From Escherichia phage PHB11: a stretch of DNA of 64,000 bases. The position numbers and the translations under genes are program-made. The stretch is taken from sequence record MK524176.1. One strand, given 5' to 3'. The notes beneath the pieces are model-generated. The model searched no databases. It was given only the letters and a program-made list of their open reading frames with translations, and was not told the origin of the DNA. Below are positions 1 through 44,391 of this stretch, piece after piece; the first letter of the stretch is position 1; each line of letters opens with the position of its first letter.

Positions 1-735
1 TCTTTAAAATTAACTTGTTAGCTCTTGTTGGTCATCTGTTAAGCCTCTGTAAAGACTATTCAGCACTTGTTAGAAATCTGTTAAGCTCTTGTTAGTTCTG
101 TTAAGAAACTGTTAAGACCTCTGAAGAGATGTTAAGAGGATGTAGTAGCTGTTAAGAGATTGTTAAGGATATTTTAAAATTTTGCAAAGGGATGGTAAGG
201 GAGCTGTTAAGGGCTACCAAGCAGATATACATCCTAGACAGATATTTTTCAGTTCCTTCAAAGACCCTAAAAAACGACTTGATAGTCCTATTTTATAAAA
301 ATTTTAAAATTCTGAATAATTACCTAGACAGTCTTTTAAAAATACAGGCATAAACAGGCTTATAAGATACCTTGTTAGTACCGTGTTAGACCTTGTGAGA
401 TAAGGTCTGTAAAGATATTCCTGTTAAGTTTGTTAAAACAGTCTATATAGAGGCTTAGTAATACCTAGTGAACACCTATAGAGGGTAACATAGCTGACAT
501 AATGGGTTACTGTTAAGTAACACAGATAACCTAGAGATTAAGAGGTGTATAGGGGCTTCTAAGAGGGTGTAGAGTAATGGTTAAGGTGATTGTATAGGTT
601 GTTAAGAAGGCTTGTTAGAAGAGTGTTTAGAAGGGTTATACAGAGGGGCTATTAAGACCACTAGATAGATACTAAGATACTATATAGTACTATATAACTA
701 TATATAGAGAGTAAGCTTAAGAAGGTTGTTAAGAA
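1..735. repeat. Iteron-like array: about 12 TGTTAAG and 7 TTGTTAG heptamers, all in the same orientation, in an ORF-free region (window edge; may extend upstream)
   Basis: Direct reading: TGTTAAG at about 38,79,99,109,130,149,160,203,421,510,600,727; TTGTTAG-type at about 15,67,89,371,383,611,625. No ORF of 60 aa or more on either strand. Confidence 0.7.
676..708. repeat. Three ACTATATA copies at 10-bp spacing (AT-rich, DUE-like)
   Basis: ACTATATA at 679, 689 and 698, next to the heptamer array. Confidence 0.55.
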
Positions 736-800
736 GGGTAGATATTTTATTCACATATGATGGTGACCCATAGGTTGGGACAACCGATAAAATTTTATAA

Positions 801-830
801 AAATTAAAAAGCCCCCCAATTAAGGAGGCT
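801..830 (-). terminator. Rho-independent terminator after the 842..1435 gene
   Basis: Minus-strand reading AGCCTCC-TTAATT-GGGGGGCT (one G-U) followed by TTTTT. Confidence 0.5.
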
Positions 831-841
831 CTTAAGATATT

Positions 842-1435
842 TTAAATCAATGTTTCCAGAACTGTCTTCAGTGATGACTTGGTTGTCTGATAAAAATGAG
901 TGAATCCATTGTTGTTATCGAATACTTGCATCATGATGTCATCTCCCTTGACTGGGTACACTCGGATATCATAGTGAAAACCATTAAAGACACAAGAACC
1001 ACTACAGAATGCTCTAAAGTCATCCACTGAGATATACTCTTCATGTCCTGTGATTTTTATACAAACACCTTTACTCGGTCTCTTAGGGTTGATATCTTCC
1101 ATCACAGACATATTCTGTCCACCAAGAGATACCATAGTGACCACTTTACGGTTCTTCTGTTTAAAGTACATCTTAACTTTCTGTAAAGTATCTTCATAGA
1201 ACGGATAAGACTTCTCTACAAAGATTCCTTCAAGTGGCTCTTTACCATTTCTAACTTCTCTGATATGACGTACTGAGAAGATAAGTTGCTCTAGTATGTC
1301 AAGGCTTTCTTTAGATAGTGCTTCCCGAACATCAGCCAAATCAAGGACTAGGTAGTTGCCTTCAACTTCTTTCAAGTTATCTTTTTCCATAGCTATCACA
1401 CCATTATCGTAAAACTTGGTAATCCGGTACTGCAA
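842..1435 (-). CDS. Hypothetical protein (may be the C-terminal part of one gene with 1404..1718, or start at an internal ATG near 1390)
   Basis: 197-aa ORF; the ORF-track start is TTG; an internal ATG with a GGTG SD-like sequence lies at about 1390. Confidence 0.45.
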   Translation of the reverse strand: MQYRITKFYDNGVIAMEKDNLKEVEGNYLVLDLADVREALSKESLDILEQLIFSVRHIREVRNGKEPLEGIFVEKSYPFYEDTLQKVKMYFKQKNRKVVTMVSLGGQNMSVMEDINPKRPSKGVCIKITGHEEYISVDDFRAFCSGSCVFNGFHYDIRVYPVKGDDIMMQVFDNNNGFTHFYQTTKSSLKTVLETLI

Positions 1436-1718
1436 ACTTGTTGTTGTTGTTCTTAATGAGGTCTTCTTCTGTTACTAAGAATGTGAGACCACACAAGTGT
1501 GTATATCTGCTATCATACTCAAATATTTTAAGTAAGTATTTACCATCATGGTAAACAAATTCTACTACACCTTTTGCAACAATCTTTCCAGTCTTGAAAT
1601 CTTTAAGAGGGTATACATTACCAACTTTAGGAACTGTTTTCATCTCAGGTTCTTTCAGTTTCTCACCAGCTTCTACATCACCTAGTAAGTGAGAACTCTC
1701 AAATGCTACATATTGCAT
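1404..1718 (-). CDS. Hypothetical protein (overlaps 842..1435 in a different frame at an AAC repeat)
   Basis: 104-aa ORF ending in an NNNNK run encoded by (AAC)4. Confidence 0.45.
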   Translation of the reverse strand: MQYVAFESSHLLGDVEAGEKLKEPEMKTVPKVGNVYPLKDFKTGKIVAKGVVEFVYHDGKYLLKIFEYDSRYTHLCGLTFLVTEEDLIKNNNNKFAVPDYQVLR

Positions 1719-1857
1719 ATAAGCTTCTTAGCATTCCCAAATAAAACAATGTACAAGAACCTTAGCAGCATGTCTTGAACAGTTCAACTCATCACAGATT
1801 TCTTTGTACATTTCATCTTTAGTTGAATTGGTAAGCATTGATTTTCGAACTGTTTCT

Positions 1858-2286
1858 TTAATTTTCATAAGCTCTCCGAATAACCCTATTAAGCATCTCT
1901 AAAGTCAGCTTTCCAGACTCTAAATGTGGCATAACAAGCTTTAAAGCTTTTTCAACATCATGCACAACATCTATTATACCTTCTTCATAGGCTTCTACAA
2001 GGATATCTTTTACGTTTTGTTGGTTATCTTTTTGTGGTATTGCTAGACGCATATCAAACTCATTTGCTTGGGGATGGTTCTTACCTTGCCAATAACCATC
2101 TTTGTTAAAGCTGATGTAGTCACCGTGGTAAAAGTGTACACCATTAGCTTTAAACTTCTCCAGCACAAGGCATTGAATTGGGTATTCAGTATTCCACTCC
2201 CTGACTCCTATAACCTTCACTGTTGCGATGTACTCCTGTGTTTTTGCATCTATGATGTCAAGTTCTTGACCAGCTATGATTTGCAT
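1858..2286 (-). CDS. Hypothetical protein
   Basis: 142-aa ORF in a co-oriented tightly packed cluster. Confidence 0.5.
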   Translation of the reverse strand: MQIIAGQELDIIDAKTQEYIATVKVIGVREWNTEYPIQCLVLEKFKANGVHFYHGDYISFNKDGYWQGKNHPQANEFDMRLAIPQKDNQQNVKDILVEAYEEGIIDVVHDVEKALKLVMPHLESGKLTLEMLNRVIRRAYEN

Positions 2287-2340
2287 ATTCGCTACCTTCT
2301 AAGTTTCTACAAAGGGGCTATCAAGTAACCCCTCAAGTTA

Positions 2341-2565
2341 TTACTCAGACTTTTCAGTCTTCTTGTCGGATTTCTTACTAGTCTTCTTCTCAGCTTTCTG
2401 CTCAGGTTCCTTCTCAGAAGTTACCTTGATAACCATATCAAGAAGCTCTGATAGGTCACTCTTCAGCAGAGTAACAGGCTGCTCATTGTAGAAGTTTTTG
2501 TCAAGATAAACTTTGAACTCTTCTATAGAGGGAAATCCAAAAATTGGTACAGGTGTCTTAATCAT
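2341..2565 (-). CDS. Hypothetical protein, lysine-rich C-terminus
   Basis: 74-aa ORF. Confidence 0.4.
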   Translation of the reverse strand: MIKTPVPIFGFPSIEEFKVYLDKNFYNEQPVTLLKSDLSELLDMVIKVTSEKEPEQKAEKKTSKKSDKKTEKSE

Positions 2566-2641
2566 TACTTAGTTTCTCCATAGGCATCTTTTAAGATTGC
2601 CTTATTAATCATTTCAGCGATTGCAAAACGAACACATACGG

Positions 2642-3175
2642 CTATAATTGTAGGTTGCATTCTTTACTTACCTCTTCAAGCTTAACCTCAGAGTCCTTGA
2701 GTCGTTTCTTATGAACTCTGAATCTCATTAGTGCGATGATGATACCAACTAAAGGAACAGCATACAAGTACCAAACATCATATACCTTTGTAGTAATCTG
2801 TGTAATGGTCAAATCTTGAGCTATGGAACTGATTGCTGATACTGCCAGTAATGTTGCTAAGAAAAATGCCAGTACCATTACTGTACTTAAACAACCTCTG
2901 GCATGGTGTTCATGCTTAATACACTTATTCTTTTCGTCAACAACCCTGTTGTAGTCGTTTGTAAAGTCTCTGTAGAAAGCTTTCAAGTATTCTTTATTGT
3001 AGCCTTCAAAGCAACCTGTACCGTACCAATAATCACCGCCGAAATGTGCTATGATACCAGTTTCTCCGTTTGGTTTAGTTACTCTCAAAGATGTGTGATG
3101 ACGAGTATCTTGATAGTCTATTTTGTATCTTTCTTCGTAAATCATTTTCCAACCCCTCTCAATCGTTTGTTCCAC
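2642..3175 (-). CDS. Hypothetical membrane protein
   Basis: 177-aa ORF with hydrophobic segments (LAFFLATLLAVSAISSIA, AVPLVGIIIAL). Confidence 0.5.
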   Translation of the reverse strand: MEQTIERGWKMIYEERYKIDYQDTRHHTSLRVTKPNGETGIIAHFGGDYWYGTGCFEGYNKEYLKAFYRDFTNDYNRVVDEKNKCIKHEHHARGCLSTVMVLAFFLATLLAVSAISSIAQDLTITQITTKVYDVWYLYAVPLVGIIIALMRFRVHKKRLKDSEVKLEEVSKECNLQL

Positions 3176-3360
3176 TCAAGGTCAACAAGTCTTTGTAGGA
3201 CTTTCCCTCTAGGTGTTACACCTTTTAAATCCGCATCGTAACAATGGTAAAAGTCACCTTCAGCGTGTTTACCATAGCATTTCCTGATATTCTGACTTCT
3301 ACGATACTGCTCTAGTAGGGATAGTCTGTAGTAATCTTCAACTGTAGTTAGTTTTTTCAT
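3142..3360 (-). CDS. Hypothetical protein
   Basis: 72-aa ORF overlapping its neighbour. Confidence 0.4.
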   Translation of the reverse strand: MKKLTTVEDYYRLSLLEQYRRSQNIRKCYGKHAEGDFYHCYDADLKGVTPRGKVLQRLVDLEWNKRLRGVGK

Positions 3361-3385
3361 TCTTTCACCACGAATCCTTTTAAGA

Positions 3386-3418
3386 AACTAAAAAGGGAAC
3401 TACCTCTCGATAGCTCCC
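3386..3418 (-). terminator. Candidate terminator hairpin
   Basis: Imperfect inverted repeat GGGAACTA/TAGCTCCC followed by T-run on the minus strand. Confidence 0.35.
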
Positions 3419-3443
3419 ATCATAGTTAACATTGTATACTCGG

Positions 3444-4025
3444 TCAAGAGTATTTTTTAGGCAGTAATGCACTACGCTTGTTGCTCTCTTCGCTCAATAG
3501 TGCGATAAACTCATCACCTTTCCCTTTCCACGGGCTGAATGTAGGGATGTGCTCTCTGATAGCCTCAATCACTGTTTTCAGGGCGTTGTTCTTTAACCAC
3601 CAATCAGACACTGCCGAAGCTACAATATAGTAAGCACCGTCATCTGTGAAGATTGGCTCAGAGATACATGGTGAAATCATAGTGGTAATGATAGAGCCAT
3701 TATTCATGTAGTATGTTCTTTTTTCAACCTTGTCAAGAAGTTTATGAAGGTCTGCAAAGAGACTTACCACCTCTTTATGGTCAATATCCTTTTCAAGATT
3801 TGCCCTGTATTTCAATAGTGCAGCATCAACCTCTTTATCATTGAATTTGAAGTATTGGACTTCTTCATTCACACATACACTGATATTGTTGGTGTTTATC
3901 GTCAATTTGCACAGTTTGACTGGAGAGTTGATGTTGGTCTGGAAAAGTGCTACACAGCCTTCTACATTCCCGAAATGTTTGACTAGTGTAACTTCTGGTT
4001 GAATGTGCTCATGTTCTTCGGACAT
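3444..4025 (-). CDS. Hypothetical protein
   Basis: 193-aa ORF. Confidence 0.5.
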   Translation of the reverse strand: MSEEHEHIQPEVTLVKHFGNVEGCVALFQTNINSPVKLCKLTINTNNISVCVNEEVQYFKFNDKEVDAALLKYRANLEKDIDHKEVVSLFADLHKLLDKVEKRTYYMNNGSIITTMISPCISEPIFTDDGAYYIVASAVSDWWLKNNALKTVIEAIREHIPTFSPWKGKGDEFIALLSEESNKRSALLPKKYS

Positions 4026-4369
4026 TACAGTTTCCTCATTAAATACTTTTTAAGTTGTGTGTTAGGTTTCTCAAAAACTTCTATAGAAGATATCTTGACA
4101 GACTCACCACGCATACCTGTATGCTTGAATATATAATACTCTAACATCCCTATGTACTTTGCTGGTAAGTCATATTTGACGTACACTGTTACAGAATCTT
4201 CAAATTCAACAACCTTTGTACCATCTTTGTAGTTAAACTCTTTAGGATGGTTGTAATTGTCGATGTCGTACATTAAAAAGAGTCTTTTACGCTGCATATC
4301 TAGCTTATTGGTTAAAGACTCTTTGATGTCTGAGAAGTTTTTGTAGACTATGACATGGAGCTTACTCAT
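4025..4369 (-). CDS. Hypothetical protein
   Basis: 114-aa ORF, start overlaps upstream stop. Confidence 0.5.
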   Translation of the reverse strand: MSKLHVIVYKNFSDIKESLTNKLDMQRKRLFLMYDIDNYNHPKEFNYKDGTKVVEFEDSVTVYVKYDLPAKYIGMLEYYIFKHTGMRGESVKISSIEVFEKPNTQLKKYLMRKL

Positions 4370-4655
4370 CGTTAAACTCTCTGACGAAGAAATAGTTGAC
4401 TTTATTATTACCTACCATAAGGTCAAAGCAGGTATTCTCAAAAGGTTTGTTGTAGGCATCATATGAAGTGTACGTATCAGCTACTTGTTTAGTGTTGAGC
4501 TTTTTACTTGATGGATTTAAGAGGCCACCATACAGTTTCTTGATAGCCTCTTCTACAACAGACCAGATGATTTCGTCAGTAATTTCTTCGTACAGGTCAA
4601 GTTCACGCTCTAGTGAGAAGTCACAAATAGGGAAAATAACCTGTACTTTACTCAT
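4362..4655 (-). CDS. Hypothetical protein
   Basis: 97-aa ORF. Confidence 0.45.
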   Translation of the reverse strand: MSKVQVIFPICDFSLERELDLYEEITDEIIWSVVEEAIKKLYGGLLNPSSKKLNTKQVADTYTSYDAYNKPFENTCFDLMVGNNKVNYFFVREFNDE

Positions 4656-5065
4656 TAACGAATAACCTGTGTGACTTGAATTGCTTCAGTTACGGACAAA
4701 TCACCTACTTTCTCTTCTTTGATAAAAGTGAAGGTGAGTTCAACAGGTTCTTCCTCTTCTTCTTCTTCTTCTTCTTGCTCAACTGGAACACCATTAAGCT
4801 CATCAAAGATTGATTGGGTTGTCCAGTCTTCACCACCATCTGGGTAGTGGATTGCGTAAAGTGGAAACTCTAAATTATACCAAGCAAAAACAGGGCAACC
4901 ATCTGCATCATCTCGACATCTGTGGAGATATGTGTTTGTGCCTTCAAAATGCAAATGGAGATTACCATTCTTCTCAAAGAGAAGAGCATCTTGCAGGTCT
5001 AGTTCCTCATTTTTGCTGTAACGGCTGACATCAACTTTAACGTGAATATGACTGTTATTATTCAT
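4655..5065 (-). CDS. Hypothetical protein with a poly-Glu tract
   Basis: 136-aa ORF containing EEEEEEEEEP. Confidence 0.5.
   Translation of the reverse strand: MNNNSHIHVKVDVSRYSKNEELDLQDALLFEKNGNLHLHFEGTNTYLHRCRDDADGCPVFAWYNLEFPLYAIHYPDGGEDWTTQSIFDELNGVPVEQEEEEEEEEEPVELTFTFIKEEKVGDLSVTEAIQVTQVIR
4749..4774. repeat. Trinucleotide repeat (CTT)n on plus, GAA on the coding strand
   Basis: TCTTCCTCTTCTTCTTCTTCTTCTTG read directly; encodes the poly-Glu run. Confidence 0.8.
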
Positions 5066-5456
5066 AAAAACCTCTCTCTGCTTGTTCGATTTTCGCTTTT
5101 AGAACTTCACACCGTTCAATGTGATATCTGGCTTCATTCTCATGTGTCGCCAAAGTTCTTTCAAGAATGGTTTTATAGTAACCTGCAAGCTGCTCTCTTG
5201 TCAATGGGTTCTCTGAAATAATATCGAGACCACTTTCACCCAGAGTATTAAACTGCCCATGTTCATTTACATGATAAGTCTCAAACTTGAATAAACCGTT
5301 ATTAGCAGCCTCAATAGGTGAGAGTTCAACCAACTCAACGGTGAACATTGTATGCACCCTATCACCAACTGTAACAATGTTACTCCCAATGATGCGTACA
5401 AGCGAACCATTACGAGTGTACTTAAAAGTCCCAAAGTCACTAGCCCAAAGCTTCAT
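5058..5456 (-). CDS. Hypothetical protein
   Basis: 132-aa ORF. Confidence 0.5.
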   Translation of the reverse strand: MKLWASDFGTFKYTRNGSLVRIIGSNIVTVGDRVHTMFTVELVELSPIEAANNGLFKFETYHVNEHGQFNTLGESGLDIISENPLTREQLAGYYKTILERTLATHENEARYHIERCEVLKAKIEQAERGFYE

Positions 5457-5469
5457 AGTTTTCTCCTTA

Positions 5470-5498
5470 GAAAATAAAAAAGGCTCCCGAAGGAGCCT
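5470..5498 (-). terminator. Rho-independent terminator between the endolysin gene and 5058..5456
   Basis: AGGCTCC-CGAA-GGAGCCT hairpin with a T-run on the minus strand. Confidence 0.55.
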
Positions 5499-5507
5499 AT
5501 GAAGATA

Positions 5508-5972
5508 TTACTTTGGGTATACACTGTCAAGATAAATGTCAGCTTCCATTCTACGTCTGTTTTTCAGACCGTTTGAAGTGACCTTCTTACCTTTGACTGT
5601 AACCTTGTTCCACCACTGCATAGCTTCTGCACAACCTACCTTATTACCAGCATTGTGTCGCTTGATAAATGTAGAATCCTGCATAGCTGTGATACCGATG
5701 TTGTATGTTTCACTTACAAGTGCATCGAACTCATTCTGAGAGGTTGGAACCTTGATAGCTTTGTTCACTGCTGCAACAAACTTTTCAACATCTGCGAGAA
5801 GATACTGTTCAGCTTGCTCAGCAGTAATTTTCATACCCATCTTAACAGGTTTTCCGTCAATACGGATTGTACCATACCCGATTGTTGGGATTCCGGCAGA
5901 GTCTTCGTAAGCCTCTAACTTGAGACCTTCAAAGAACTTGATAGCTTCTAAACCTTTTCTTGAGAGTTGCAT
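5508..5972 (-). CDS. Endolysin, GH24 lysozyme family (T4 lysozyme / lambda R-like)
   Basis: N-terminal FEGLKLEAYEDSAGIPTIGYGT pattern with catalytic Glu, typical of GH24 phage lysozymes; 154 aa. Confidence 0.8.
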   Translation of the reverse strand: MQLSRKGLEAIKFFEGLKLEAYEDSAGIPTIGYGTIRIDGKPVKMGMKITAEQAEQYLLADVEKFVAAVNKAIKVPTSQNEFDALVSETYNIGITAMQDSTFIKRHNAGNKVGCAEAMQWWNKVTVKGKKVTSNGLKNRRRMEADIYLDSVYPK

Positions 5973-6856
5973 TATGCCTCCCCTGCTGGGTTAACTGTAA
6001 CTGTTGCCGCATTAGATGTCACAGAGCCACCTGCACCAGTAACTACACAGGTGTAGCTTCCTGAATCAGCAGTTGTTGCACCTTCTTTGGTGTAAGTCGC
6101 AGCAGTTGCGTCTGGGATGACTTCCTCACCTTTCTTCCACTGGTAACCTGTTGCACCAGTAGCTACAACACTTAGTGTCAAGGTAGCACCTTCAGTGATT
6201 TCTTGATTGGCTGGTTGTTGAGTGATAACTGGCAAAGCATTCACGGTTACTGTTGCTGCGTCTGAGGTGACACTTGTCCCGCCCTCTCCAGATACAACGC
6301 AAGTGTATGAACCAGCATCAGAAGGAGCTACCGACTGTTTTGTGTAAGTTGCAGAAGTGGCACTGGAGATGTCCTCACCATCTTTCTTCCACTGATAACC
6401 AGTGGCATTAGATGCAACAACACTCAGAGTGAGCGTTCCACCTTCATTGACTGTTTGGTTTGTTGGTTGCTGAGTGATTGATGGTGGTGTGATGGCATCT
6501 TTCAACTTAGCATTCAGCATTGAGAAAGGTTTAACTCTTGCCAGCCATTCACAGTAAATTGTGTCAACATCTTTACCGTTGATGATTGCATACTGTAAAT
6601 CCATGAAGAAATCAGCAGTTCTCATCTGTGCACCAACACTGTAAAGGAGTTCATCACTAAAAGGAACTTTGTAGTCTGGTTTGTAGTCAAACTTCTTAAC
6701 TTCTGCGATATCAGCTTCAGGCCAATATGAGCTATAGGTGAGTGGTAAAATAGCTTCTTGATATGTTCTAAAATCATATCTCTTACCAGCCTTTACATTT
6801 GCGATGAAGCCCTTCACAAATTCTTTGAAGTCTGGGTAAGTCTTTGCTTTAATCAT
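5972..6856 (-). CDS. Protein with two C-terminal tandem Ig-like domains
   Basis: Two approx 84-aa repeats with TLTLSVVA..TGYQWKK..YTCVV..ATVTVN pattern; N-terminal domain paralogous to 6853..7224. Confidence 0.6.
   Translation of the reverse strand: MIKAKTYPDFKEFVKGFIANVKAGKRYDFRTYQEAILPLTYSSYWPEADIAEVKKFDYKPDYKVPFSDELLYSVGAQMRTADFFMDLQYAIINGKDVDTIYCEWLARVKPFSMLNAKLKDAITPPSITQQPTNQTVNEGGTLTLSVVASNATGYQWKKDGEDISSATSATYTKQSVAPSDAGSYTCVVSGEGGTSVTSDAATVTVNALPVITQQPANQEITEGATLTLSVVATGATGYQWKKGEEVIPDATAATYTKEGATTADSGSYTCVVTGAGGSVTSNAATVTVNPAGEA
5975..6481. repeat. Tandem duplication of about 250 bp encoding the two Ig-like domains
   Basis: Two diverged near-identical DNA units visible by eye. Confidence 0.6.
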
Positions 6857-7224
6857 TTCTTTTTAGCCTCTAAACGTGCGTTTAATCTAAAATAGCCTTT
6901 ATGTTGTGGAGACACATCACCAACAACGATACCTTCAACTTTATAACCTTTACCGATTACATACTGGATATCCATAAGAAATGTACCAAGTCCTACAATG
7001 TGGAACATTGGGTATAATAACTTATCTGAATCTGGGAGATTAATATCTGGGTTGTAGGTAGGTTGTTTACTAGTAGGTGTAATATCTTCTTCAGGCCATT
7101 TACTTAGTCTCCATGTCAAAGGTGTTGGGATAACATCATTAAGATTGTACCTCCCACCATTCTCCACGGAATGGATATAGGATTGTAGGAAGCAATAAAA
7201 GTCTTTTGCACTCTTAGCCTTCAT
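6853..7224 (-). CDS. Hypothetical protein, paralog of the N-terminal domain of 5972..6856
   Basis: 123-aa ORF; shared motifs (GKRY, WPE.DI, KLLY) with its neighbour. Confidence 0.5.
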   Translation of the reverse strand: MKAKSAKDFYCFLQSYIHSVENGGRYNLNDVIPTPLTWRLSKWPEEDITPTSKQPTYNPDINLPDSDKLLYPMFHIVGLGTFLMDIQYVIGKGYKVEGIVVGDVSPQHKGYFRLNARLEAKKK

Positions 7225-7237
7225 TAAATATCCTTAT

Positions 7238-7263
7238 AAATAGATAAAGGGGCATTAGCCCCT
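7238..7263 (-). terminator. Candidate terminator hairpin
   Basis: AGGGGC-ATTA-GCCCCT with a T-rich run on the minus strand. Confidence 0.45.
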
Positions 7264-7271
7264 GTTTATAC

Positions 7272-7862
7272 TTAAGCTTTGGTCTTAAGTAGGTTCTTAA
7301 GTTTTTTGAGATTCATGCTCTCGTCAAACTTAAAACCAAATCCATTGACATAATCAATGAACTCGGATTTCTTACTGAGTGATAGCGCGTAACTCATATC
7401 AAAGTTATTACTTGTTTCTGCGTCTGGACTAGAGTTCACATCAAATGAAATTTCTGTAGGCTCTTGCTTGCTACTTCTCATATTATCAATTAATAGGCAT
7501 GTATAGTTCGCTGGATAGAAGTTTGCACTACCATCAACATACCCATACTTATTGTTGTGAATAAGGTTTGAAAATACCTTAAGAAATGTTTCTGAGTCGT
7601 GGCATACAAGTTTGAATTGACTGCACTCTCCAAGAGCCACTAGAGAGTAAGGACTTTCACTATCAATGTCATAGTTTGGATTTAATGCTGTAACCGTCAC
7701 ACGCATCAAGTTATTAGCAATAGTCTTCTGTTTAAAAGAATTTGGGACATAGTGAAGACCTCTATCACACTGATTAACTAACTCTTTAAGTAGGTCATTT
7801 GCATATGGTGAATTAATTGATACAGAGCCGTCACTATTGTAATTAAAACTTACTGTTAACAT
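7272..7862 (-). CDS. Hypothetical protein
   Basis: 196-aa ORF. Confidence 0.5.
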   Translation of the reverse strand: MLTVSFNYNSDGSVSINSPYANDLLKELVNQCDRGLHYVPNSFKQKTIANNLMRVTVTALNPNYDIDSESPYSLVALGECSQFKLVCHDSETFLKVFSNLIHNNKYGYVDGSANFYPANYTCLLIDNMRSSKQEPTEISFDVNSSPDAETSNNFDMSYALSLSKKSEFIDYVNGFGFKFDESMNLKKLKNLLKTKA

Positions 7863-8089
7863 TTTTCAGTTCTCCTGCGATTTATGATTTTGCTGCAATA
7901 GAGAAACGAAGTAAACTCACTGGAAGAAACCATTAAGTGTTGTTCACTAGACTGAGCCATTGCCCTGAAATACATTCCAGTCAAAGCATCGTAGTGACTA
8001 TTCTTTCCAATTGAGGTTATATAGCCATGACTCTTTGCAGTTTGATATAAATCTATAATATCTGCGATTTCTAATTGGGAACTACACAT
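7856..8089 (-). CDS. Hypothetical protein
   Basis: 77-aa ORF. Confidence 0.4.
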   Translation of the reverse strand: MCSSQLEIADIIDLYQTAKSHGYITSIGKNSHYDALTGMYFRAMAQSSEQHLMVSSSEFTSFLYCSKIINRRRTEKC

Positions 8090-8253
8090 AGATAATCCTC
8101 TTGTCTTCTGTAATTTTGAAAGAACAGGTACAGACCAATTTCAGAGGACGAATAGTAGAGTAACTCTACCCTTTTTGATTCCTTACAGTGATTGGTATTT
8201 TTACCTTTCTTCGGGTTGTTTGATTTTCTCATTAAGTCTCCTTTGTAGAACAA
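8071..8253 (-). CDS. Hypothetical small protein
   Basis: 60-aa ORF, first gene of the minus cluster; weak. Confidence 0.3.
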   Translation of the reverse strand: MFYKGDLMRKSNNPKKGKNTNHCKESKRVELLYYSSSEIGLYLFFQNYRRQEDYLCVVPN

Positions 8254-8330
8254 GGCAGACCTACAGCTTTAAGTAAGATGGTACAGTAATCCATACAACA
8301 AGTCAAGAACTATTGCAAGTTAAAAAAGTT

Positions 8331-8355
8331 GTTGACAAAGTACTTGACAAGGTGT
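8331..8355. promoter_or_regulatory. Conserved 25-bp block with two direct TTGACAA copies 12 bp apart in a divergent intergenic region
   Basis: GTTGACAAAGTACTTGACAAGGTGT; 24/25 identical to 50463..50487; no good -10 at 17 bp from either TTGACA. Confidence 0.5.
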
Positions 8356-8481
8356 AGGCTTATAAATACTTAGAAGATAACTTAAAAGGTTCCTCTAAAA
8401 AGGCTATTTAAACAGATATCTTTCTGGATATCTATCTTTTATCTTAAAAGCCTTTTAAGAGGTCTTATAAGAGGCATACCA

Positions 8482-14182: not shown

Positions 14183-14740
14183 ATGAGATATTTGAAGTAT
14201 GCTTCATGGATTTTCCTAGCTTTGTTAGACCCATTGGCAGCAATCTTAGCAGTTATCTTAGCACCTTTCGTAGTTCCATTTTACAGTGAGAAGAAAGGAC
14301 ACTTACCTTTCGGATTTAGATGGATGGAAACTTATGACAACCCAATTGACGGTGATGAAGGTCATGTCAAACGATGGGCTAAGATTAGAAAGATTGGTAA
14401 GCTTGGTATCTATATGCAGAGAGTCGGTTGGCTCTGGAGAAACAAAGCTTATAACTTCTCCTACCATGTGTTAGGAAGAGATGTAAAAGATGTTACTAAG
14501 TGGAAAGGTAATATCAACGTAAGTTCTGACCCTGAAGATAATCAGACAGGTTATCTCTTAATGTGGAACAGTAATGCTTGGGGATTATTCGCTTTTATCC
14601 CATCAATTAAAGTCTTTGGTAAACAATTCTACTGGAGAATTTATGTTGGATGGAAACTTAAAAGTGTTGTCCCAGAAGAAAGAGCATTCTCAAGGGAAAG
14701 AGTTATGTTGACATTCTTTATTCATCCACTAAGAAAGTAA
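14183..14740 (+). CDS. Hypothetical membrane protein encoded inside the tRNA array
   Basis: 185-aa ORF, AAGAGG RBS, N-terminal hydrophobic segment IFLALLDPLAAILAVILAPFVVPF. Confidence 0.6.
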   Translation: MRYLKYASWIFLALLDPLAAILAVILAPFVVPFYSEKKGHLPFGFRWMETYDNPIDGDEGHVKRWAKIRKIGKLGIYMQRVGWLWRNKAYNFSYHVLGRDVKDVTKWKGNINVSSDPEDNQTGYLLMWNSNAWGLFAFIPSIKVFGKQFYWRIYVGWKLKSVVPEERAFSRERVMLTFFIHPLRK

Positions 14741-14748
14741 AGATTTAA

Positions 14749-14821
14749 AGGGGATTAGTTTACAAGGTTAAAACCTCGGTCTTTGAAATCGAAGAAGTTG
14801 GTTCAATTCCAACATCCCCCG
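14749..14821 (+). tRNA. tRNA-Gln (anticodon TTG)
   Basis: Acceptor AGGGGAT/ATCCCCC (1:72 mismatch), D-arm GTTT-ACAAGGTTA-AAAC, stem TCGGT/ATCGA, loop CTTTGAA, T-arm GTTGG-TTCAATT-CCAAC, CCA encoded. Confidence 0.6.
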
Positions 14822-14826
14822 CCAAT

Positions 14827-14902
14827 GCTCCATTACTCCAATTGGCAGAGAGGCCAGACTTAAAATCTGTGTTATGTATCGGTTCGAATCCGATATGGAG
14901 TA
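14827..14902 (+). tRNA. tRNA with anticodon TAA (Leu-type anticodon; no long variable arm in manual fold)
   Basis: Acceptor GCTCCAT/ATGGAGT, loop CTTAAAA, T-arm ATCGG-TTCGAAT-CCGAT, A73, CCA encoded; anticodon stem has one mismatch. Confidence 0.5.
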
Positions 14903-14910
14903 CCAAATTT

Positions 14911-14983
14911 AGCGGTATAGCATAACTGGCAATGCAGCAGTCTCTGAAGCTGTCTTATTAAGGTTCAAATCCTTATGCCGCTG
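14911..14983 (+). tRNA. tRNA-Gln (anticodon CTG)
   Basis: Acceptor AGCGGTA/TGCCGCT, D-arm GCAT-AACTGGCAA-TGC, loop CTCTGAA, T-arm TAAGG-TTCAAAT-CCTTA, CCA encoded. Confidence 0.6.
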
Positions 14984-15017
14984 CCACTTCTAAGGATTCT
15001 TACGAGAGTCCTTAAAT

Positions 15018-15090
15018 GTGGCCTTATCATAAATGGTAATGACCCATGCTGTGAACATGGTCTATACGGGTTCAAATCCCGTAGGTCACC
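15018..15090 (+). tRNA. tRNA-His (anticodon GTG)
   Basis: Acceptor GTGGCCT/AGGTCAC, stem CCATG/CATGG, loop CTGTGAA, T-arm ACGGG-TTCAAAT-CCCGT, C73, CCA encoded. Confidence 0.65.
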
Positions 15091-15098
15091 CCAATTTA

Positions 15099-15173
15099 TA
15101 GTCCAAGTAGCTTATATGGTTAAAGCGCGTGTCTGAAAAACATGAGAAGAGGGTTCAAATCCCACTGGACTAC
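15099..15173 (+). tRNA. tRNA-Phe (anticodon GAA)
   Basis: Acceptor TAGTCCA/TGGACTA (perfect), D-arm GCT-TATATGGTTAA-AGC, loop CTGAAAA, T-loop TTCAAAT. Confidence 0.6.
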
Positions 15174-15191
15174 CAATTTCAAAGGTGCTTA

Positions 15192-15926
15192 ATGAAAGAG
15201 ATGACAGAACAAGGTAAGGAGATTTTTAATCTCTTAAAAACCGGTAGAGGGTTTTCTAATCCCCTTATTACTGGTGCAGCAGTTCTCGGTGGAACCGTAG
15301 CTGCCTCTACATCACTTGTAAGCTCTATTAGCTCTGTAACAGACCCTACAATAAAGGATAAACTTGTTGCTGCTGGACTTACAACAGTTCTGCTTAACAG
15401 CTTTACAACGAGTCTGACAAGCACTACATCAACCACTAAAACACTGACAGATTACGGTCAAAAGTCCATTGCTGAGTTTTCATCACGTATGCAGGTAGCA
15501 AAAGGATATTCCAATGTTATGGGTGCAGCAGGAGAACAAGTCGGTTGTACACCATTTAGTGGTATTATGGGTGTTGCTACAGAATATGGTCAAAAAGCTA
15601 TTGACACGATTAACAGTACACTAGATAGTGTTAACGGTGTATTAAGTGACTTACAGGATGCTATTGATAAAGGTCTTGATACTATTTCTGATTTAGCTAA
15701 CCAAGCTGTTAGCAAGATTAATGAAGGTATCTCAAAGATTACAGCTTATGCAGATGAAGTTGTGCAGATGATTGAAGAAGAAGCTGCCCTTATTGCAGAG
15801 TACCTTAAAACAAATATCAATGGGTTCTTAGCAGGTATCTTACCAGACTGGTTTGACGATGCTTGTAAAACTGGTGTGATTGACACTATTGCAACACCAG
15901 AAATGAAGAACGCATTACAGAAATAA
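15192..15926 (+). CDS. Hypothetical protein (Ser/Thr-rich N-terminal region)
   Basis: ORF-track 15129 start lies inside tRNA-Phe; first ATG after the tRNA is 15192 with AAAGGTG RBS; 244 aa. Confidence 0.6.
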   Translation: MKEMTEQGKEIFNLLKTGRGFSNPLITGAAVLGGTVAASTSLVSSISSVTDPTIKDKLVAAGLTTVLLNSFTTSLTSTTSTTKTLTDYGQKSIAEFSSRMQVAKGYSNVMGAAGEQVGCTPFSGIMGVATEYGQKAIDTINSTLDSVNGVLSDLQDAIDKGLDTISDLANQAVSKINEGISKITAYADEVVQMIEEEAALIAEYLKTNINGFLAGILPDWFDDACKTGVIDTIATPEMKNALQK

Positions 15927-15927
15927 T

Positions 15928-16017
15928 GGAAGATTAACCCTAAAAGGTAAGGGAGCAGTTTGCTAAACTGCCAGTAGCTGAGAAATCGGTGTATCAGTTC
16001 AAGTCTGGTATCTTCCT
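15928..16017 (+). tRNA. tRNA-Ser (anticodon GCT), long variable arm
   Basis: Acceptor GGAAGAT/ATCTTCC, stem GCAGT/ACTGC, loop TTGCTAA, long variable arm, T-loop TTCAAGT, CCA encoded; 90 nt. Confidence 0.65.
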
Positions 16018-16024
16018 CCAATTT

Positions 16025-16097
16025 GAATCCGTGACAGAAATGGCTATGTGCCTGTCTGCAAAACAGGTTTATAAGGGTTCGAGTCCCTTCGGATTCT
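16025..16097 (+). tRNA. tRNA-Cys (anticodon GCA)
   Basis: Acceptor GAATCCG/CGGATTC (perfect), stem CCTGT/ACAGG, loop CTGCAAA, T-arm AAGGG-TTCGAGT-CCCTT, CCA encoded. Confidence 0.7.
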
Positions 16098-16138
16098 CCA
16101 AGTTATTTTACTCTCTCTCTCAATTAAAATAATAATAA

Positions 16139-40076: not shown

Positions 40077-40976
40077 TTATTTACCTACTGACAAAGGTGC
40101 TTCAATCTTTCCTGCATGTTGATAGTTGCTAATACCACCAATAAAGTCACTTGCAGTGAGATGTTTTAAGTCACTTAAAGTGTTAAGTGGGATACCAATC
40201 TCAAAAGTTGGTGCATGGAACTCTTCATTGTTCATTAGTTCATAAACCTGCTTCATGTGGTTCTGATAAATCTGAGTATCTCCAAAGACACCTATCAAAT
40301 ATCGTGGAGTGTATCCAGTCATCTTACAAAGAACTTCCAGAATAAAACCATAAGATGCAATGTTAAACGGAAGTCCTAAAAAGGTGTCTACAGAACGCTG
40401 ATACCATTGTAAGTCAACTTCACCCTCGTTAGTGATATAAATCTGAAACAGAACATGACAAGGTGCTAGAGCCATTGAGTTTGCTGCAATATCTGCTGCA
40501 TTCCAAGCATTAACAAGCATGTAACGGTCTGTGATATCACCCTTCATCTTCGTTACTAAGGTCTCTAACTGGTCTACAACACAACCATTATGACCTTCAA
40601 AGTTTCTCCACTGAACTCCATAGATTCTTCCACCTGCATCTTCTAACCAATCTTGTTCAGAAGAATAATTAGAGCTTAACCAACGTTTAAAATCATCTGA
40701 CCAGATAGTCCAACGTTCTCCGTCATTTTCACCCCAAGTGCGGTAACGGAGTTCACCAAGCTTATTCTCACCATTCAGGAACCATAAAGCTTCTCCGATA
40801 ACTTGCCGTGTAAACACCTGTTTAGATGTTAAGAGTGGGAAACCAGTTCGCATATCAAAACGAAACTGAGGTGGAGCAAATGCAGAGATAACATCTCCAG
40901 TTCGTGTGGTACGCAGTTCACCAACTGATAAAACATGGTTCAGGATATTTTTGTAACTCAAATCTGCTTGTGACAT
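40077..40976 (-). CDS. thyA: Thymidylate synthase
   Basis: 299 aa; conserved active-site Cys context (ALAPCHVLFQIY) and overall ThyA-like pattern. Confidence 0.8.
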   Translation of the reverse strand: MSQADLSYKNILNHVLSVGELRTTRTGDVISAFAPPQFRFDMRTGFPLLTSKQVFTRQVIGEALWFLNGENKLGELRYRTWGENDGERWTIWSDDFKRWLSSNYSSEQDWLEDAGGRIYGVQWRNFEGHNGCVVDQLETLVTKMKGDITDRYMLVNAWNAADIAANSMALAPCHVLFQIYITNEGEVDLQWYQRSVDTFLGLPFNIASYGFILEVLCKMTGYTPRYLIGVFGDTQIYQNHMKQVYELMNNEEFHAPTFEIGIPLNTLSDLKHLTASDFIGGISNYQHAGKIEAPLSVGK

Positions 40977-40977
40977 A

Positions 40978-41523
40978 TCAAAAGTGCCCTTTTACTTGTG
41001 GAACATAAATTTCAAAAGTTGCTTTACCATCCTCTGATGGTTTTGACTGTACCTTTGTAAATACACGGTTATCATACAACTTTTCAAAGAAGTTTTCAAA
41101 AGGTAAATGAACAGTGGCCTCTTCAGTAACTTTATGGAAAACTGTATGGAACACTACATCAGCATACGGTAAAGCATTGACAAGGACACCTGCACCACCA
41201 ATTACAAAGACATCTTCATCAATAGAGCTATCAAGATACTTCAAAAATGCTCCAAATGACTCTTTACTGGCTTTAGCATACATTACCTCATCTTTGCCAA
41301 AGTCTATGCCTAAGTATGGTACAGAGTTTGTTAAGATGAGGTTTGCACGTTCTGGTAAGGGTTTACTACCCAGAGTCTTAAAAGTCTCATTCCCCATCAC
41401 TACTAAGTTATTTTTAGTGAGTCTCTTAAACTCTTGCATATCCTGTTTATGTCGAGGCCACGGCATACCAGTTGGAGTACCAAACTCACCATTTTCACCA
41501 CTTGCAAAGATTAGTTTAATCAT
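40978..41523 (-). CDS. folA: Dihydrofolate reductase
   Basis: 181 aa; N-terminal IFA...G.PW...D...F pattern typical of DHFR; adjacent to thyA. Confidence 0.7.
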   Translation of the reverse strand: MIKLIFASGENGEFGTPTGMPWPRHKQDMQEFKRLTKNNLVVMGNETFKTLGSKPLPERANLILTNSVPYLGIDFGKDEVMYAKASKESFGAFLKYLDSSIDEDVFVIGGAGVLVNALPYADVVFHTVFHKVTEEATVHLPFENFFEKLYDNRVFTKVQSKPSEDGKATFEIYVPQVKGHF

Positions 41524-41780
41524 TTTATAAATCCTTTCTTAATAAACCAGTTGATAACATTCTTCACAGCTTTATTGCTATGGTAGATTAAGTGTGGTGT
41601 AGGTTGGTATGAGCCATAGGCCCAGAATGATAGATGCTCACCACAACCAACACATGTAGTACTTTCTTCAGCTATATGACCATTAACAATCACATGAACT
41701 TCACCTTGCAAATCTGTACACCCACAATGTGGACAACGTATAGGTGTTCCATCAGACTCATAGCAGTGTTCAATTTTCAT
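41520..41780 (-). CDS. Zinc-ribbon protein
   Basis: 86 aa with CPHCGC ... CVGCGEH Cys pairs. Confidence 0.5.
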   Translation of the reverse strand: MKIEHCYESDGTPIRCPHCGCTDLQGEVHVIVNGHIAEESTTCVGCGEHLSFWAYGSYQPTPHLIYHSNKAVKNVINWFIKKGFIK

Positions 41781-42296
41781 TTATTTAACCTCAAAAACTG
41801 GCTCAAGAGCCAATATAAAGTCTACACAGTCATCTTCTTCATCCAGAATACCATCAAAGTTCTTAGGAACGAAGTCGAAGAGGCTCATAACAAAACAGTC
41901 AGAAGTAACCCTAATAGTGCCTCCCATATTCTCTACAGTCAACACTGTACGACTTTCTTTTACCTCTCGCAGAAGATTGCTCACAAAGTCATCTAAGAAG
42001 TACTTCATCAGTGACTTAAAGCCTTTAGGGTAATCTGTACCAGAGTATGTTTCAATCTGAGGTACAAGCTTAACATTTATACTAGTCTTTGTTAAGAACG
42101 TGCTAGAGAACATGCTATCAGGTAATTTACAAACAATCTTTCCAGTGCCTTCATGCTCAATCTCAACAAAACCAGCTTCATCACCACATGTAACTATTTT
42201 AAAAGATGCTTCATTCTCATACTGTGAAGCCATAAACTTTTTAAGCATCACTTTAAGGAAGTCTGCATGAGCATCTTGTAAGTAGATATCAATCAT
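41781..42296 (-). CDS. Hypothetical protein
   Basis: 171-aa ORF. Confidence 0.5.
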   Translation of the reverse strand: MIDIYLQDAHADFLKVMLKKFMASQYENEASFKIVTCGDEAGFVEIEHEGTGKIVCKLPDSMFSSTFLTKTSINVKLVPQIETYSGTDYPKGFKSLMKYFLDDFVSNLLREVKESRTVLTVENMGGTIRVTSDCFVMSLFDFVPKNFDGILDEEDDCVDFILALEPVFEVK

Positions 42297-42309
42297 AACT
42301 AATCACCTA

Positions 42310-42669
42310 TTATGGGAACAGACACTTAATGTCATCGTTTTTGAAAACGAAACTTGTGTAGTTGTGACCATCAACATCCAGCCAAACAGCCTGAACATCT
42401 ACACCATCAAGATTCTGGTAAAGCTCTTTGATGAAGTGGTCTTTTACAATCTGACTGCTAGTTGTTTCCAGCTTAATGTTAGAGATTGCTGAACCTACAG
42501 CCATATAACCCATGACACGTTTCTTCTCAGTATGCTTAATCTTACCATCTTTGTAAGCCATAATGAGATTGGAAAGAATCTTCACACCATAATACTTTTC
42601 AAGGTGAGTCGGTACACCATAAAAACCTAATGCGAAGTTTTCAGAGTGGATAATGTTTTCACGTTTCAT
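42310..42669 (-). CDS. Hypothetical protein
   Basis: 119-aa ORF. Confidence 0.5.
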   Translation of the reverse strand: MKRENIIHSENFALGFYGVPTHLEKYYGVKILSNLIMAYKDGKIKHTEKKRVMGYMAVGSAISNIKLETTSSQIVKDHFIKELYQNLDGVDVQAVWLDVDGHNYTSFVFKNDDIKCLFP

Positions 42670-42670
42670 A

Positions 42671-43000
42671 TTAATCTGCCAGCCTTAAATTAAAATTAAC
42701 ACCAAATTTTTCACATACTTCCAACATAAACTCAAGAGAGACATTACCAGTGAGATTAATTATGTTGGATACACGAGCCTGAGAGATACCACAAATTTTA
42801 GCAACTTGCTCTTGAGAAAGACCTCTGGATTTAATCTCTCTCTTAAAACGATGTGCAACGAAATCTCTCATTTCGTCTACATCCATTGGACAAATATAAC
42901 TCTCCATTTCAGCCTCTCTGTCAGCCTCCCAACCATCTTGTGGAGCATAAGGGTCAAAAACCTCATTCATCTTTCTTCTTCCGTTTACGTGAAGTGTCAA
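42671..43000 (-). CDS. HTH DNA-binding protein (putative transcription regulator)
   Basis: Helix-turn-helix-like LSQEQVAKICGISQARVSNIIN near the C-terminus. Confidence 0.5.
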   Translation of the reverse strand: MTLHVNGRRKMNEVFDPYAPQDGWEADREAEMESYICPMDVDEMRDFVAHRFKREIKSRGLSQEQVAKICGISQARVSNIINLTGNVSLEFMLEVCEKFGVNFNLRLAD

Positions 43001-43175
43001 TCAATGAATCTATGTTTGTAGCCCTAACCTTTTCACGTTCATCGTTAAGATAATCATCAAGAGCCTTCTCAATCTGTGAATCATCTTGACAGATAACTGT
43101 AAAGACTGTAAAGCCATCTGTATCATCAATTATCTTACCATAACCGCTTCTGGGATGTAACTTTTTAAGAGCCAT
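42963..43175 (-). CDS. Hypothetical protein
   Basis: 70-aa ORF. Confidence 0.4.
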   Translation of the reverse strand: MALKKLHPRSGYGKIIDDTDGFTVFTVICQDDSQIEKALDDYLNDEREKVRATNIDSLIDTSRKRKKKDE

Positions 43176-43176
43176 A

Positions 43177-43560
43177 TCAAATACCTGTGCAGCTTCTGTT
43201 TTCTAAGAAATACTCAACACCATACATAGCTTTTTGCATCAAATCTTCTTTAAACTGAATACGATGATTAAGCATAGTCTGTACATCAATATCATCATGG
43301 TGCTTTTCTTTAATATTTGCAGATTGCAGGAAATACTCTCCAAGAACACGATACTGATAGTCAGTTACCTTGTCAGTCATCTCTGTTAAAGACTCTTCAG
43401 AGATTGGTTTAAGTAACTCACCATTAGCCAAAGCAACACCTTTAACAATCTGACAAGTGTCTTCTGGAACACCTGATAAGTCTACATTTGGAAGTTCTGT
43501 TGCATTGACTGGTAAATTCATTGCCATAACCATTGCAGCGGCTAATAAAACCTTTTTCAT
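43177..43560 (-). CDS. Secreted/periplasmic protein (signal peptide)
   Basis: N-terminal MKKVLLAAAMVMAMNLPVNA signal-peptide-like segment; 127 aa. Confidence 0.55.
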   Translation of the reverse strand: MKKVLLAAAMVMAMNLPVNATELPNVDLSGVPEDTCQIVKGVALANGELLKPISEESLTEMTDKVTDYQYRVLGEYFLQSANIKEKHHDDIDVQTMLNHRIQFKEDLMQKAMYGVEYFLENRSCTGI

Positions 43561-43925: not shown

Positions 43926-43948
43926 TCCGAAGAGGCTACCTAGTCAAC

Positions 43949-44389: not shown

Positions 44390-44391
44390 AA

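Follow-up and report, generated by a model that had tools for sequence, protein, structure and literature searches.

Two intergenic regions of Escherichia phage PHB11 (sequence record MK524176.1), each lying where a minus-strand and a plus-strand gene cluster diverge, share a nearly identical 25-mer that carries two TTGACA hexamers in tandem. The stretch of DNA analysed here, referred to throughout as the window, is 64,000 nucleotides (nt) long and is 96–99% identical to many genomes of Felixounavirus, the Felix O1-like myoviruses of Escherichia and Salmonella. The four gene clusters of the window correspond to the four transcription units described for Felix O1 (Table 1) and, since the layouts match, the two divergent regions, which we call site 1 and site 2, represent the gene 40/41 and gene 96/97 intergenic regions of that phage. 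At site 2 the mechanically called open reading frame (ORF) of the DNA polymerase begins at 50433, but the true start is probably the ATG at 50403, with GAGGGAG ahead of it as in the annotation of phage SUSP2, so that the site 2 intergenic region spans 50404–50660.

Results

Two divergent intergenic regions share a tandem TTGACA repeat

The original prediction, made from the letters of the window, held that the 25-mer recurs at the two divergences together with a second shared block about 25 nt downstream, and our searches bear this out. The two copies are identical at 24 of 25 positions, and a search of the whole window on both strands returned no third match with three or fewer mismatches (100 shuffled sequences gave 0). 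The arrangement TTGACA-N(2–9)-TTGACA is likewise found in the window at sites 1 and 2 only, against a mean of 0.12 in shuffled sequences. The second block (ACTTAAAAGGTT, hereafter block 2) is exact at both sites, 24 and 23 nt past the 25-mer. Because the stretch separating the 25-mer from block 2 is unrelated between the sites, we regard these as two separate conserved blocks and not as one duplicated stretch. Within the 25-mer the two hexamers (hexamer 1 upstream, hexamer 2 downstream) are direct repeats, as had been proposed, and at both sites lie 12 base pairs (bp) apart centre to centre, slightly more than the one helical turn claimed for them.

The upstream hexamer as the -35 element of a candidate host-type promoter

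The 25-mer had been read as an operator rather than a standard promoter, partly because no convincing -10 hexamer was seen at 16–18 bp. We find instead that TAGGCT lies 17 nt past hexamer 1 at site 1 and TGtTAATCT 18 nt past it at site 2, and that both are kept as TAnnnT in relatives. Each site combines a -35 that is TTGACA, a -10 whose second base is A and whose sixth is T at a distance of 16–18 nt, and an orientation and position upstream of a transcription unit, the two candidates pointing into the rightward clusters 115 and 160 nt ahead of the first start codons. A simple consensus scan misses both -10 hexamers because it demands four of six matches and each has three. Directly before hexamer 1 of site 1 stands AAAAAAGTTG, a context shared with canonical promoters of the window: AAAAGTTG-TTGACA recurs at 11891 (+), 45402 (-) and 10459 (+), in promoters of the form TTGACA-N16–18-TAnAnT, and also in many unrelated phage promoters.

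Relatives were gathered without selection for the motif, by scans of IMG/VR anchored on the downstream leader sequence and from GenBank genomes, and gave 10 distinct variants of site 1 and 9 of site 2. Every one of these variants has both TTGACA hexamers unchanged, with the 6 nt between the hexamers taking seven forms at site 1 and nine at site 2. At site 1 the spacer after hexamer 1 is constant at 17 nt and the -10 reads TAGGCT, TAGCCT, TAAGTT or TAGTGT; at site 2 the spacer is 18 nt and the -10 reads TGtTAATCT, TGtTAGTCT or TGgTAGTCT. The much more distant Hafnia phage Zyzzx has a 17-nt spacer between hexamer 1 and the -10 at both sites (TACTCT at site 1, TATTGT at site 2). Across the 19 variants, which come from Felixounavirus, Suspvirus and Mooglevirus, and Zyzzx, the -10 holds constant only its first two bases (T, A) and its final T, as is characteristic of a -10 element. 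Single promoters occupy the orthologous positions in other phages: TTGACA-N17-TGcTAGGCT at site 2 of Pectobacterium phage Arno18, and canonical promoters at both sites of Erwinia phage phiEa21-4, which carries TTGACA-N6-TTGACA-N5-TAAAGT elsewhere, at the start of its large noncoding region.

This pattern bears on the possibility that the likeness of the two sites has no function and stems from a recent duplication or gene conversion between the intergenic regions. The variable bases are indeed alike at the two sites within Felixounavirus (AAGTAC versus ATGTAC), and block 2 has changed at both. Against this, the sequence between the 25-mer and block 2 has nothing in common at the two sites, the hexamers are invariant over four genus-level lineages in which neighbouring bases diverge, and in Mooglevirus the inter-hexamer bases differ between the sites at four of six positions with both hexamers kept. 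We consider such an origin very improbable, and already largely refuted by the pattern of conservation.

Our reading is that the 25-mer rather probably comprises the -35 element and part of the spacer of a host sigma70 promoter, with hexamer 1 as the -35. According to Whichard et al. 2010 (PMC3185647), Felix O1 has no phage RNA polymerase or sigma factor; the same authors predicted a host-type promoter, P41, at site 1 (TTGACA(N15)TATAGG) and stated that the 96/97 region holds nothing homologous. Several points weigh against our reading. The two -10 candidates match the consensus at only three of six positions, and an extended TG is missing at site 1. The searchable literature yielded no transcription start or polymerase-binding data for any Felixounavirus. 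End-point reverse transcription PCR places the maxima of ORFs 41, 42 and 96–99 of Felix O1 at 25 min and not at 5 min (Whichard Table 3, PMC3185647), which would fit a promoter needing a phage factor, and the text of that paper has ORF 96 transcribed by 5 min. The GenBank record of ASO1A annotates another register at site 1, namely hexamer 2, N15 and AATACT. Finally, the invariance of hexamer 2 is without reason in a standard sigma70 promoter, and the tandem is a special feature that ordinary promoters do not share (see below).

The ASO1A annotation, together with the fact that both hexamers are perfect -35 elements, could point to two overlapping promoters, each TTGACA serving as its own -35, with starts about 12 nt apart. 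At site 2, however, there is no -10-like hexamer 15–18 nt past hexamer 2 (AAGTGG and neighbours), and at site 1 the stretch downstream of hexamer 2 has a 1-nt indel in the spacer, and the AATACT candidate changes between genera. Nothing -10-like lies 16–18 nt past hexamer 2 in the T4-like phages described below either. We therefore rejected hexamer 2 as a productive -35, there being no conserved -10 at 15–18 nt at sites 1 and 2 or in the T4-like family, and consider a pair of overlapping promoters distinctly improbable.

Other promoter and regulator classes were set aside as well. Sigma32, sigma28, sigmaE and sigma54 promoters, the pho box, ArcA TGTTAA repeats, lambda CII sites and the MotA box do not fit in sequence or spacing when the sites are read against the respective consensus sequences. 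A T4 MotA-dependent middle promoter is rejected because no MotA box (TGCTTtA) is present. The exact T4 late-promoter consensus TATAAATA at 8361–8368 is not conserved (TAATAAAA in relatives), is absent at site 2 and has no gp55 homologue to serve it in the window; we judged it a coincidence.

If hexamer 1 is the -35, then one sigma70-RNA polymerase promoter would head each rightward transcription unit. The polymerase would take the upstream TTGACA as its -35 and then a weak -10, TAGGCT at 17 nt or TG plus TAATCT at 18 nt, starting near 8367 (8366–8368) and 50500, and the transcripts would cross long, conserved, AT-rich leaders. The first unit (from 8482) would thereby yield the DUF5681 protein, the Ro-like RNA-binding protein, 26 transfer RNAs (tRNAs) and the packaging and structural genes, and the second (from 50661) the replication and nucleotide-metabolism genes.

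The downstream hexamer is conserved as strictly as the upstream one

In the variants found, hexamer 2 is conserved as strictly as hexamer 1. To this extent the original prediction stands, in that the element is not a plain promoter; its argument against a promoter does not, given the conserved -10 and the A-rich tract. The element is best read as a promoter, at most with an embedded site of another reader, and the evidence does not favour an operator instead of a promoter.

A second hexamer at offset 12, with up to one mismatch allowed, is found in none of 228 distinct other TTGACA-N17-TAnnnT sites from about 0.9 megabases of unrelated viral contigs. The tandem is thus no by-product of promoter strength, which rules it out as a general trait of strong phage promoters, and selection on hexamer 2 is specific to the promoters described here and needs a separate explanation. 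That hexamer 2 is under selection follows from comparison of the sequences. Hexamer 2 lies at an offset of 12 bp in Felixounavirus, Suspvirus and Mooglevirus, versus 11 and 10 bp at the two sites of Zyzzx. That it floats by 2 bp with respect to both hexamer 1 and the -10 argues against a single fixed open-complex contact, and equally against a rigid tandem dimer; the operator for a dimeric or tandem-binding regulator that had been envisaged would call for a fixed phasing, which these distances do not show.

Several other uses of hexamer 2 were considered and rejected. Read leftward, it has no -10 at a usable distance. The GTAC palindrome that separates the hexamers is a feature of Felixounavirus and is not conserved in the other genera, so that hexamer 2 is not part of a palindrome. 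An extended 12-mer, CTTGACAAGGTG, was considered as a genome-wide operator and gave one further near-match at a promoter (47185–47196) and no convincing enrichment. That copy, on the minus strand, is a third TTGACAAGGTG; it provides the -35 for a promoter candidate, TTGACA-N17-TACCTT, that lies downstream of an HNH endonuclease gene, and shares an 11-mer with hexamer 2 and its flank.

At both sites the tandem stands back to back with a leftward promoter candidate (Table 1). At site 1 the leftward -35 consists of hexamer 1 and the A after it, read on the opposite strand, and so overlaps hexamer 1; TATTGCAA within this candidate is invariant across genera. The site 2 candidate abuts hexamer 1, one base off, and is kept as TTGCTT-N17-TAATGT or TAGGGT in SUSP2 and Moogle. 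The T4-like element described below also abuts a leftward promoter, with TGgTATAnT ahead of g55. This context, common to both systems and the sole clue to function that emerged for hexamer 2, suggests that the hexamer may act in competition or coupling between divergent polymerases. Our preferred inference, which we put forward tentatively, is that hexamer 2 may offer a second docking site for region 4 of sigma and might thereby adjust how polymerase is captured, how it escapes or how it competes with the leftward promoter. Recognition by a separate factor with the same hexamer specificity is just as possible.

The tandem layout recurs in unrelated T4-like phages

A scan of IMG/VR for TTGACA-N5-CTTGACAAG returned many chance matches inside genes and, among the matches listed, a large clearly intergenic set. 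TAnnnT lies exactly 17 nt from hexamer 1, that is 5 nt past hexamer 2, in 26 of the 94 distinct non-Felix matches listed, against a background of 2%. Most of the intergenic tandem matches listed are on T4-like, cyanophage-like contigs, where they are flanked by the late sigma gene g55 and by a small ORF on the uvsW side (UvsW identified by Pfam, g55 by PHROG 234 at 2e-58); the closest isolates of these contigs are Synechococcus phages at 50–59% identity. In a scan anchored on AAAAGTTGTTGACAA, which leaves hexamer 2 out of the anchor, TTGACA stands at offset 12 in 14 of the 16 distinct members of the T4-like family among the matches listed, and the 5 nt before the -10 vary freely.

The T4-like tandem shares with site 1 its offsets and even its upstream context (AAAAGTTG-TTGACA-AAGGGC-TTGACA-N5-TATAGT) and resembles both sites in that hexamer 2 is kept with varying flanks and in standing back to back with a leftward extended -10. 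It differs from them in having strong -10 hexamers and in pointing away from g55, antisense to the genes on the uvsW side. No shared protein was detected between the fetched T4-like contig fragments and the window, which makes the host polymerase the factor most economically common to both systems. TTGACA-N6-TTGACA-N5-TAnAnT was seen next to g55 in loci L075, L080, L076, L111, L121, L089, L052, L126 and many others among L015–L281; it is antisense to the uvsW side in most of them and points into the g55-like gene in L126. At the corresponding position (L135:1030–1200) the cultured phage S-RSM4 carries TTGTCAAAGCTTGACA-N17-TAGAAT.

Repeat arrays mark both leaders and a noncoding region

The predicted leaders downstream of the two promoter candidates carry an 8-mer family, CTT[AT]A[ACT]AG (short form CTTWAMAG), which includes CTTAAAAG, CTTAACAG, CTTTAAAG and CTTAATAG. 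The array in the leaders is strand-specific and opens with block 2 at both sites. Six copies lie on the transcribed strand of the 162-nt site 2 leader, where about 0.1 would be expected, several in the site 1 leader, and 11 on the minus strand of positions 1–660 of the window (about 0.5 expected), often 11–12 nt apart. When the complete SUSP2 and phiEa21-4 genomes are scanned, the motif is again densest in the site 2 leader, the site 1 leader and a noncoding region of 1.2–1.7 kb. The copies are clustered, phased, above chance and conserved in relatives; in orthologous copies C, T, T, A5, A7 and G8 are fixed, and positions 4 and 6 vary. To judge from this pattern, the units are probably sites for a putative phage factor acting on DNA or RNA, or an RNA signal.

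The noncoding region lies between converging cluster ends and extends over 0.8–1.7 kb: positions 1–840 (-) of the window, SUSP2 L003:26739–28407 and phiEa21-4 L004:16471–17660. Its repeats (CTTAACAG, CTAACAAG, TGTTAAGA) have a period of about 11 nt, occur in both orientations and are accompanied by AT-rich stretches. The homologous gap is longer in SUSP2 (1.7 kb) than in phiEa21-4 (1.2 kb), and in the latter a tandem TTGACA promoter heads it. This region looks like an origin, a packaging region or a terminal region.

Block 2 is CTTAAAAGACTC at both sites of Suspvirus, Mooglevirus and Zyzzx, except at site 2 of Mooglevirus (CTTAATAGACTC). In Felixounavirus it has become CTTAAAAGGTT (GGTT) at both sites, a parallel change, accompanied at site 1 by a change in the predicted pairing partner (CCUCU/AGAGG versus CUUCU/AGAAG). 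For the site 1 leader a long hairpin is predicted, with folding stronger than in shuffled sequence (z = -3.2; -2.2 for the other leader fold), and the site 2 leader hairpin AACGTAT/ATACGTT becomes ATGTAT/ATACAT in Moogle. Covariation is sparse, amounting to three pairs with double changes that all come from the doubtful alignment of Zyzzx, the sequences being too conserved, and an Rfam search of both leaders gave no match near the gathering score, its only two matches, at site 1, scoring about 20 bits against thresholds of at least 100. An RNA structure in the leaders is plausible on these predictions. Beyond block 2 (8392–8470 and 50555–50625) the leaders contain a further similar stretch, CTCTAAAAAGGCTATTTAAACAG versus CTCTTAAAAGATTATTTAATAG, after which each has a hairpin or palindrome (AGATATC...GATATCT; AGCTTTTAAAAAGCT), an order that loosely recalls boxA-spacer-boxB.

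More speculatively, the leaders may form an origin-like module, in which a strong host promoter would fire into AT-rich repeats, the transcript priming replication or opening the DNA for the T7-like primase-helicase and polymerase, with the CTTWAMAG units as iterons. The site 2 leader, between the DNA polymerase and primase/helicase genes, includes the 120-nt stretch of highest AT content in the window (82%), and the 8-mer arrays recur with an 11-nt period in the 1.2–1.7 kb noncoding region headed in phiEa21-4 by a tandem TTGACA promoter. However, both leaders lead into genes with ordinary ribosome-binding sites, no initiator protein was identified, and the GC skew turns at both sites in a manner confounded by gene orientation. 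We regard such a module as improbable.

A candidate regulator and other readers of the second hexamer

The only DNA-binding regulator recognised in the window is a helix-turn-helix (HTH) protein of the HTH_3 (Cro/CI) type. It, or a protein not recognised by us, could bind the TTGACAA units or hexamer 2 and so switch both rightward units together, with block 2 and the CTTWAMAG units perhaps as further sites; such an operator is compatible with a promoter at the same place. It would explain the invariance of hexamer 2, which the promoter model leaves unexplained, and the lack of the tandem in ordinary promoters (0 of 228). It also suits the position of the sites at the head of long operons whose first genes peak at 25 min, and the parallel change of block 2 at both Felixounavirus sites. 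The HTH_3 protein co-occurs with the tandem in three genera, being present in Felixounavirus, Suspvirus and Mooglevirus, but no homologue was detected in Zyzzx (E < 1e-3) or in the Erwinia and Pectobacterium relatives, and since Zyzzx keeps the tandem, the match between protein and site is imperfect. Moreover, the conserved bases are the exact sigma70 -35 consensus; a reader of TTGACAA would also bind most other promoters of this phage; the layout is conserved in T4-like phages whose fetched contig fragments share no detectable protein with the window; and the spacing of 10–12 bp is not a fixed phasing. Dimers of Cro/CI-type HTH proteins usually bind inverted repeats and not direct ones, which also counts against an operator. 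An operator function for hexamer 2 or block 2 is possible, but we think it unlikely that a phage regulator of this kind is what the tandem serves.

A broader reading, which we hold to be doubtful, is that the tandem defines a distinct "double -35" promoter class, selected in at least two unrelated lineages (Felix O1-like phages, and T4-like phages beside g55), whose spacer TTGACA would be read in an undescribed way and which in Felix O1-like phages would be coupled to the CTTWAMAG arrays. The reader might be sigma region 4, engaged in a second register while polymerase is captured by or escapes from back-to-back divergent promoters, or a phage factor that mimics -35 recognition, and the arrays would tie both rightward operons to the origin- or packaging-like noncoding region through one putative binding factor. 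The literature searched gave no description of such a class.

Genes downstream of site 1

The product of the first gene after site 1 (8482–8853) is a DUF5681 protein whose N-terminus is basic and rich in glycine. Since Felix O1 has no known small terminase subunit (Whichard 2010, PMC3185647), this protein could be a candidate for that subunit. The second gene (8935–10350) encodes a DUF2828/DUF7788 Ro/TROVE-like "RNA-binding protein" and lies just 5' of the tRNA cluster. The 26 tRNA genes (10515–16100) are mixed with canonical TTGACA-N17/18-TAnAnT promoters at 10368, 10459 and 11891, the first of which sits within a terminator-like hairpin (GGGTATTGACAATGTGTTTGATACCC).

Table 1 Positions of the shared elements, promoter candidates, leaders and gene clusters in the window.
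Feature	Position	Strand	Remarks
25-mer, site 1	8331–8355	+	GTTGACAAAGTACTTGACAAGGTGT
25-mer, site 2	50463–50487	+	GTTGACAATGTACTTGACAAGGTGT; one mismatch to site 1
A-rich tract, UP-element-like	8320–8331	+	TTAAAAAAGTTG; adjoins hexamer 1 upstream; also spacer of leftward promoter candidate
Hexamer 1, site 1	8332–8337	+	TTGACA, proposed -35 of rightward promoter; invariant in 10 distinct variants
Variable 6 nt between hexamers, site 1	8338–8343	+	AAGTAC; in relatives AAGTAC, AAGGAC, AAGCAC, AATGAC, TTCCTC, AGCCTC, AGGGGA
Hexamer 2, site 1	8344–8349	+	TTGACA in spacer, at about -23 to -18; invariant, flanks vary
Proposed -10, site 1	8355–8360	+	TAGGCT, 17 nt from hexamer 1
Block 2, site 1	8380–8391	+	ACTTAAAAGGTT; first CTT[AT]A[ACT]AG unit of site 1 leader
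Predicted transcribed leader of DUF5681 gene	8366–8481	+	Putative start; sequence nearly invariant across three genera
Leftward promoter candidate, site 1	8309–8338	-	TTGTCA (8338–8333), 18-nt spacer, TGc-AATAGT (8317–8309); consensus scan
Hexamer 1, site 2	50464–50469	+	TTGACA, proposed -35; invariant in 9 distinct variants
Hexamer 2, site 2	50476–50481	+	TTGACA in spacer; invariant, preceding 6 nt in nine forms
Proposed extended -10, site 2	50485–50493	+	TGt-TAATCT, TG at -15/-14; 18 nt from hexamer 1
Block 2, site 2	50511–50522	+	ACTTAAAAGGTT
Predicted leader of rightward replication/nucleotide-metabolism cluster	50499–50660	+	Six CTT[AT]A[ACT]AG units, two hairpins/palindromes
Leftward promoter candidate for DNA polymerase gene, site 2	50434–50462	-	TTGCTT (50462–50457), 17-nt spacer, TAATGT (50439–50434); sequence reading
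Noncoding region with CTT[AT]A[ACT]AG family	1–700	-	CTTAACAG, CTAACAAG; period about 11 nt; cut by window start
Leftward cluster	842–8253	-	
Rightward cluster	8482–40040	+	DUF5681 gene, Ro/TROVE-like "RNA-binding protein", 26 tRNA genes, then terminase, head and tail genes
Leftward cluster	40077–50403	-	DNA polymerase at cluster end
Rightward cluster	from 50661	+	dNMP kinase, primase/helicase, exonuclease, ribonucleotide reductases
HTH_3 (Cro/CI-type) transcriptional regulator	42671–43000	-	Pfam HTH_3 5e-11, PHROG 1373; only DNA-binding regulator recognised in window

Discussion

Felix O1 is a classic diagnostic and biocontrol phage, whose temporal control and passage of many internal terminators were stated to be not known (Whichard et al. 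2010, PMC3185647); other genome papers on Felix-like phages contain generic promoter predictions only. The two promoters proposed here to start the large rightward units would provide a concrete entry to gene control in Felix O1, with nearly identical control regions at both. Because hexamer 2 also occurs in unrelated T4-like phages and not in ordinary promoters, it poses a testable puzzle about how promoters are read by sigma70 polymerase or a mimic. The CTTWAMAG arrays in turn point to a putative sequence-specific factor and may mark the replication or packaging region of this phage group.

The arrangement at the two sites invites comparison with several known systems. The paired similar elements just past two major promoters recall the primary origin of T7, oriF and oriG of T4, lambda nut and HK022 put, as do the AT-rich, repeat- and hairpin-rich leaders and operons with many internal terminators. 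In contrast to nut and put, no boxA/boxB or put structure was found by Rfam, and no N-like protein was identified. The pho box (bound by PhoB), OmpR sites and the lambda CII site TTGC-N6-TTGC are likewise direct repeats about one helical turn apart, placed roughly from -35 to -18 in front of a weak -10. Here, however, the repeat is the sigma70 -35 consensus, and its period is 12 bp (10–12 in relatives) versus a fixed 10–11. On reading the sequence, CTGTCAT-N4-CTGTCAT at the right distance from a -10 was found on neither strand, and the same holds for TTGC-N6-TTGC; no response-regulator-like or CII-like protein was seen in the window.

Canonical sigma70 promoters with an UP-like A-tract, an extended -10 or both are found among the early promoters of T7 (A1–A3), T5 and T4. 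The candidates at sites 1 and 2 resemble them in the perfect TTGACA, the 17–18 nt spacer, the TAnnnT, the A-rich upstream tract, the TG at site 2 and the position at the head of operons in a phage lacking an RNA polymerase of its own, and differ in the weak -10 and in a second perfect TTGACA within the spacer that is under purifying selection. We know of no promoter class with a second TTGACA in the spacer. A close precedent is the predicted P41 of Felix O1 (PMC3185647), which concerns the same locus, the gene 40/41 region, and the same upstream hexamer, but uses a Felix O1-specific register with a 15-nt spacer and does not note the second hexamer. What is unusual here is a strictly conserved second TTGACA in the spacer of what reads as an otherwise host-type promoter.

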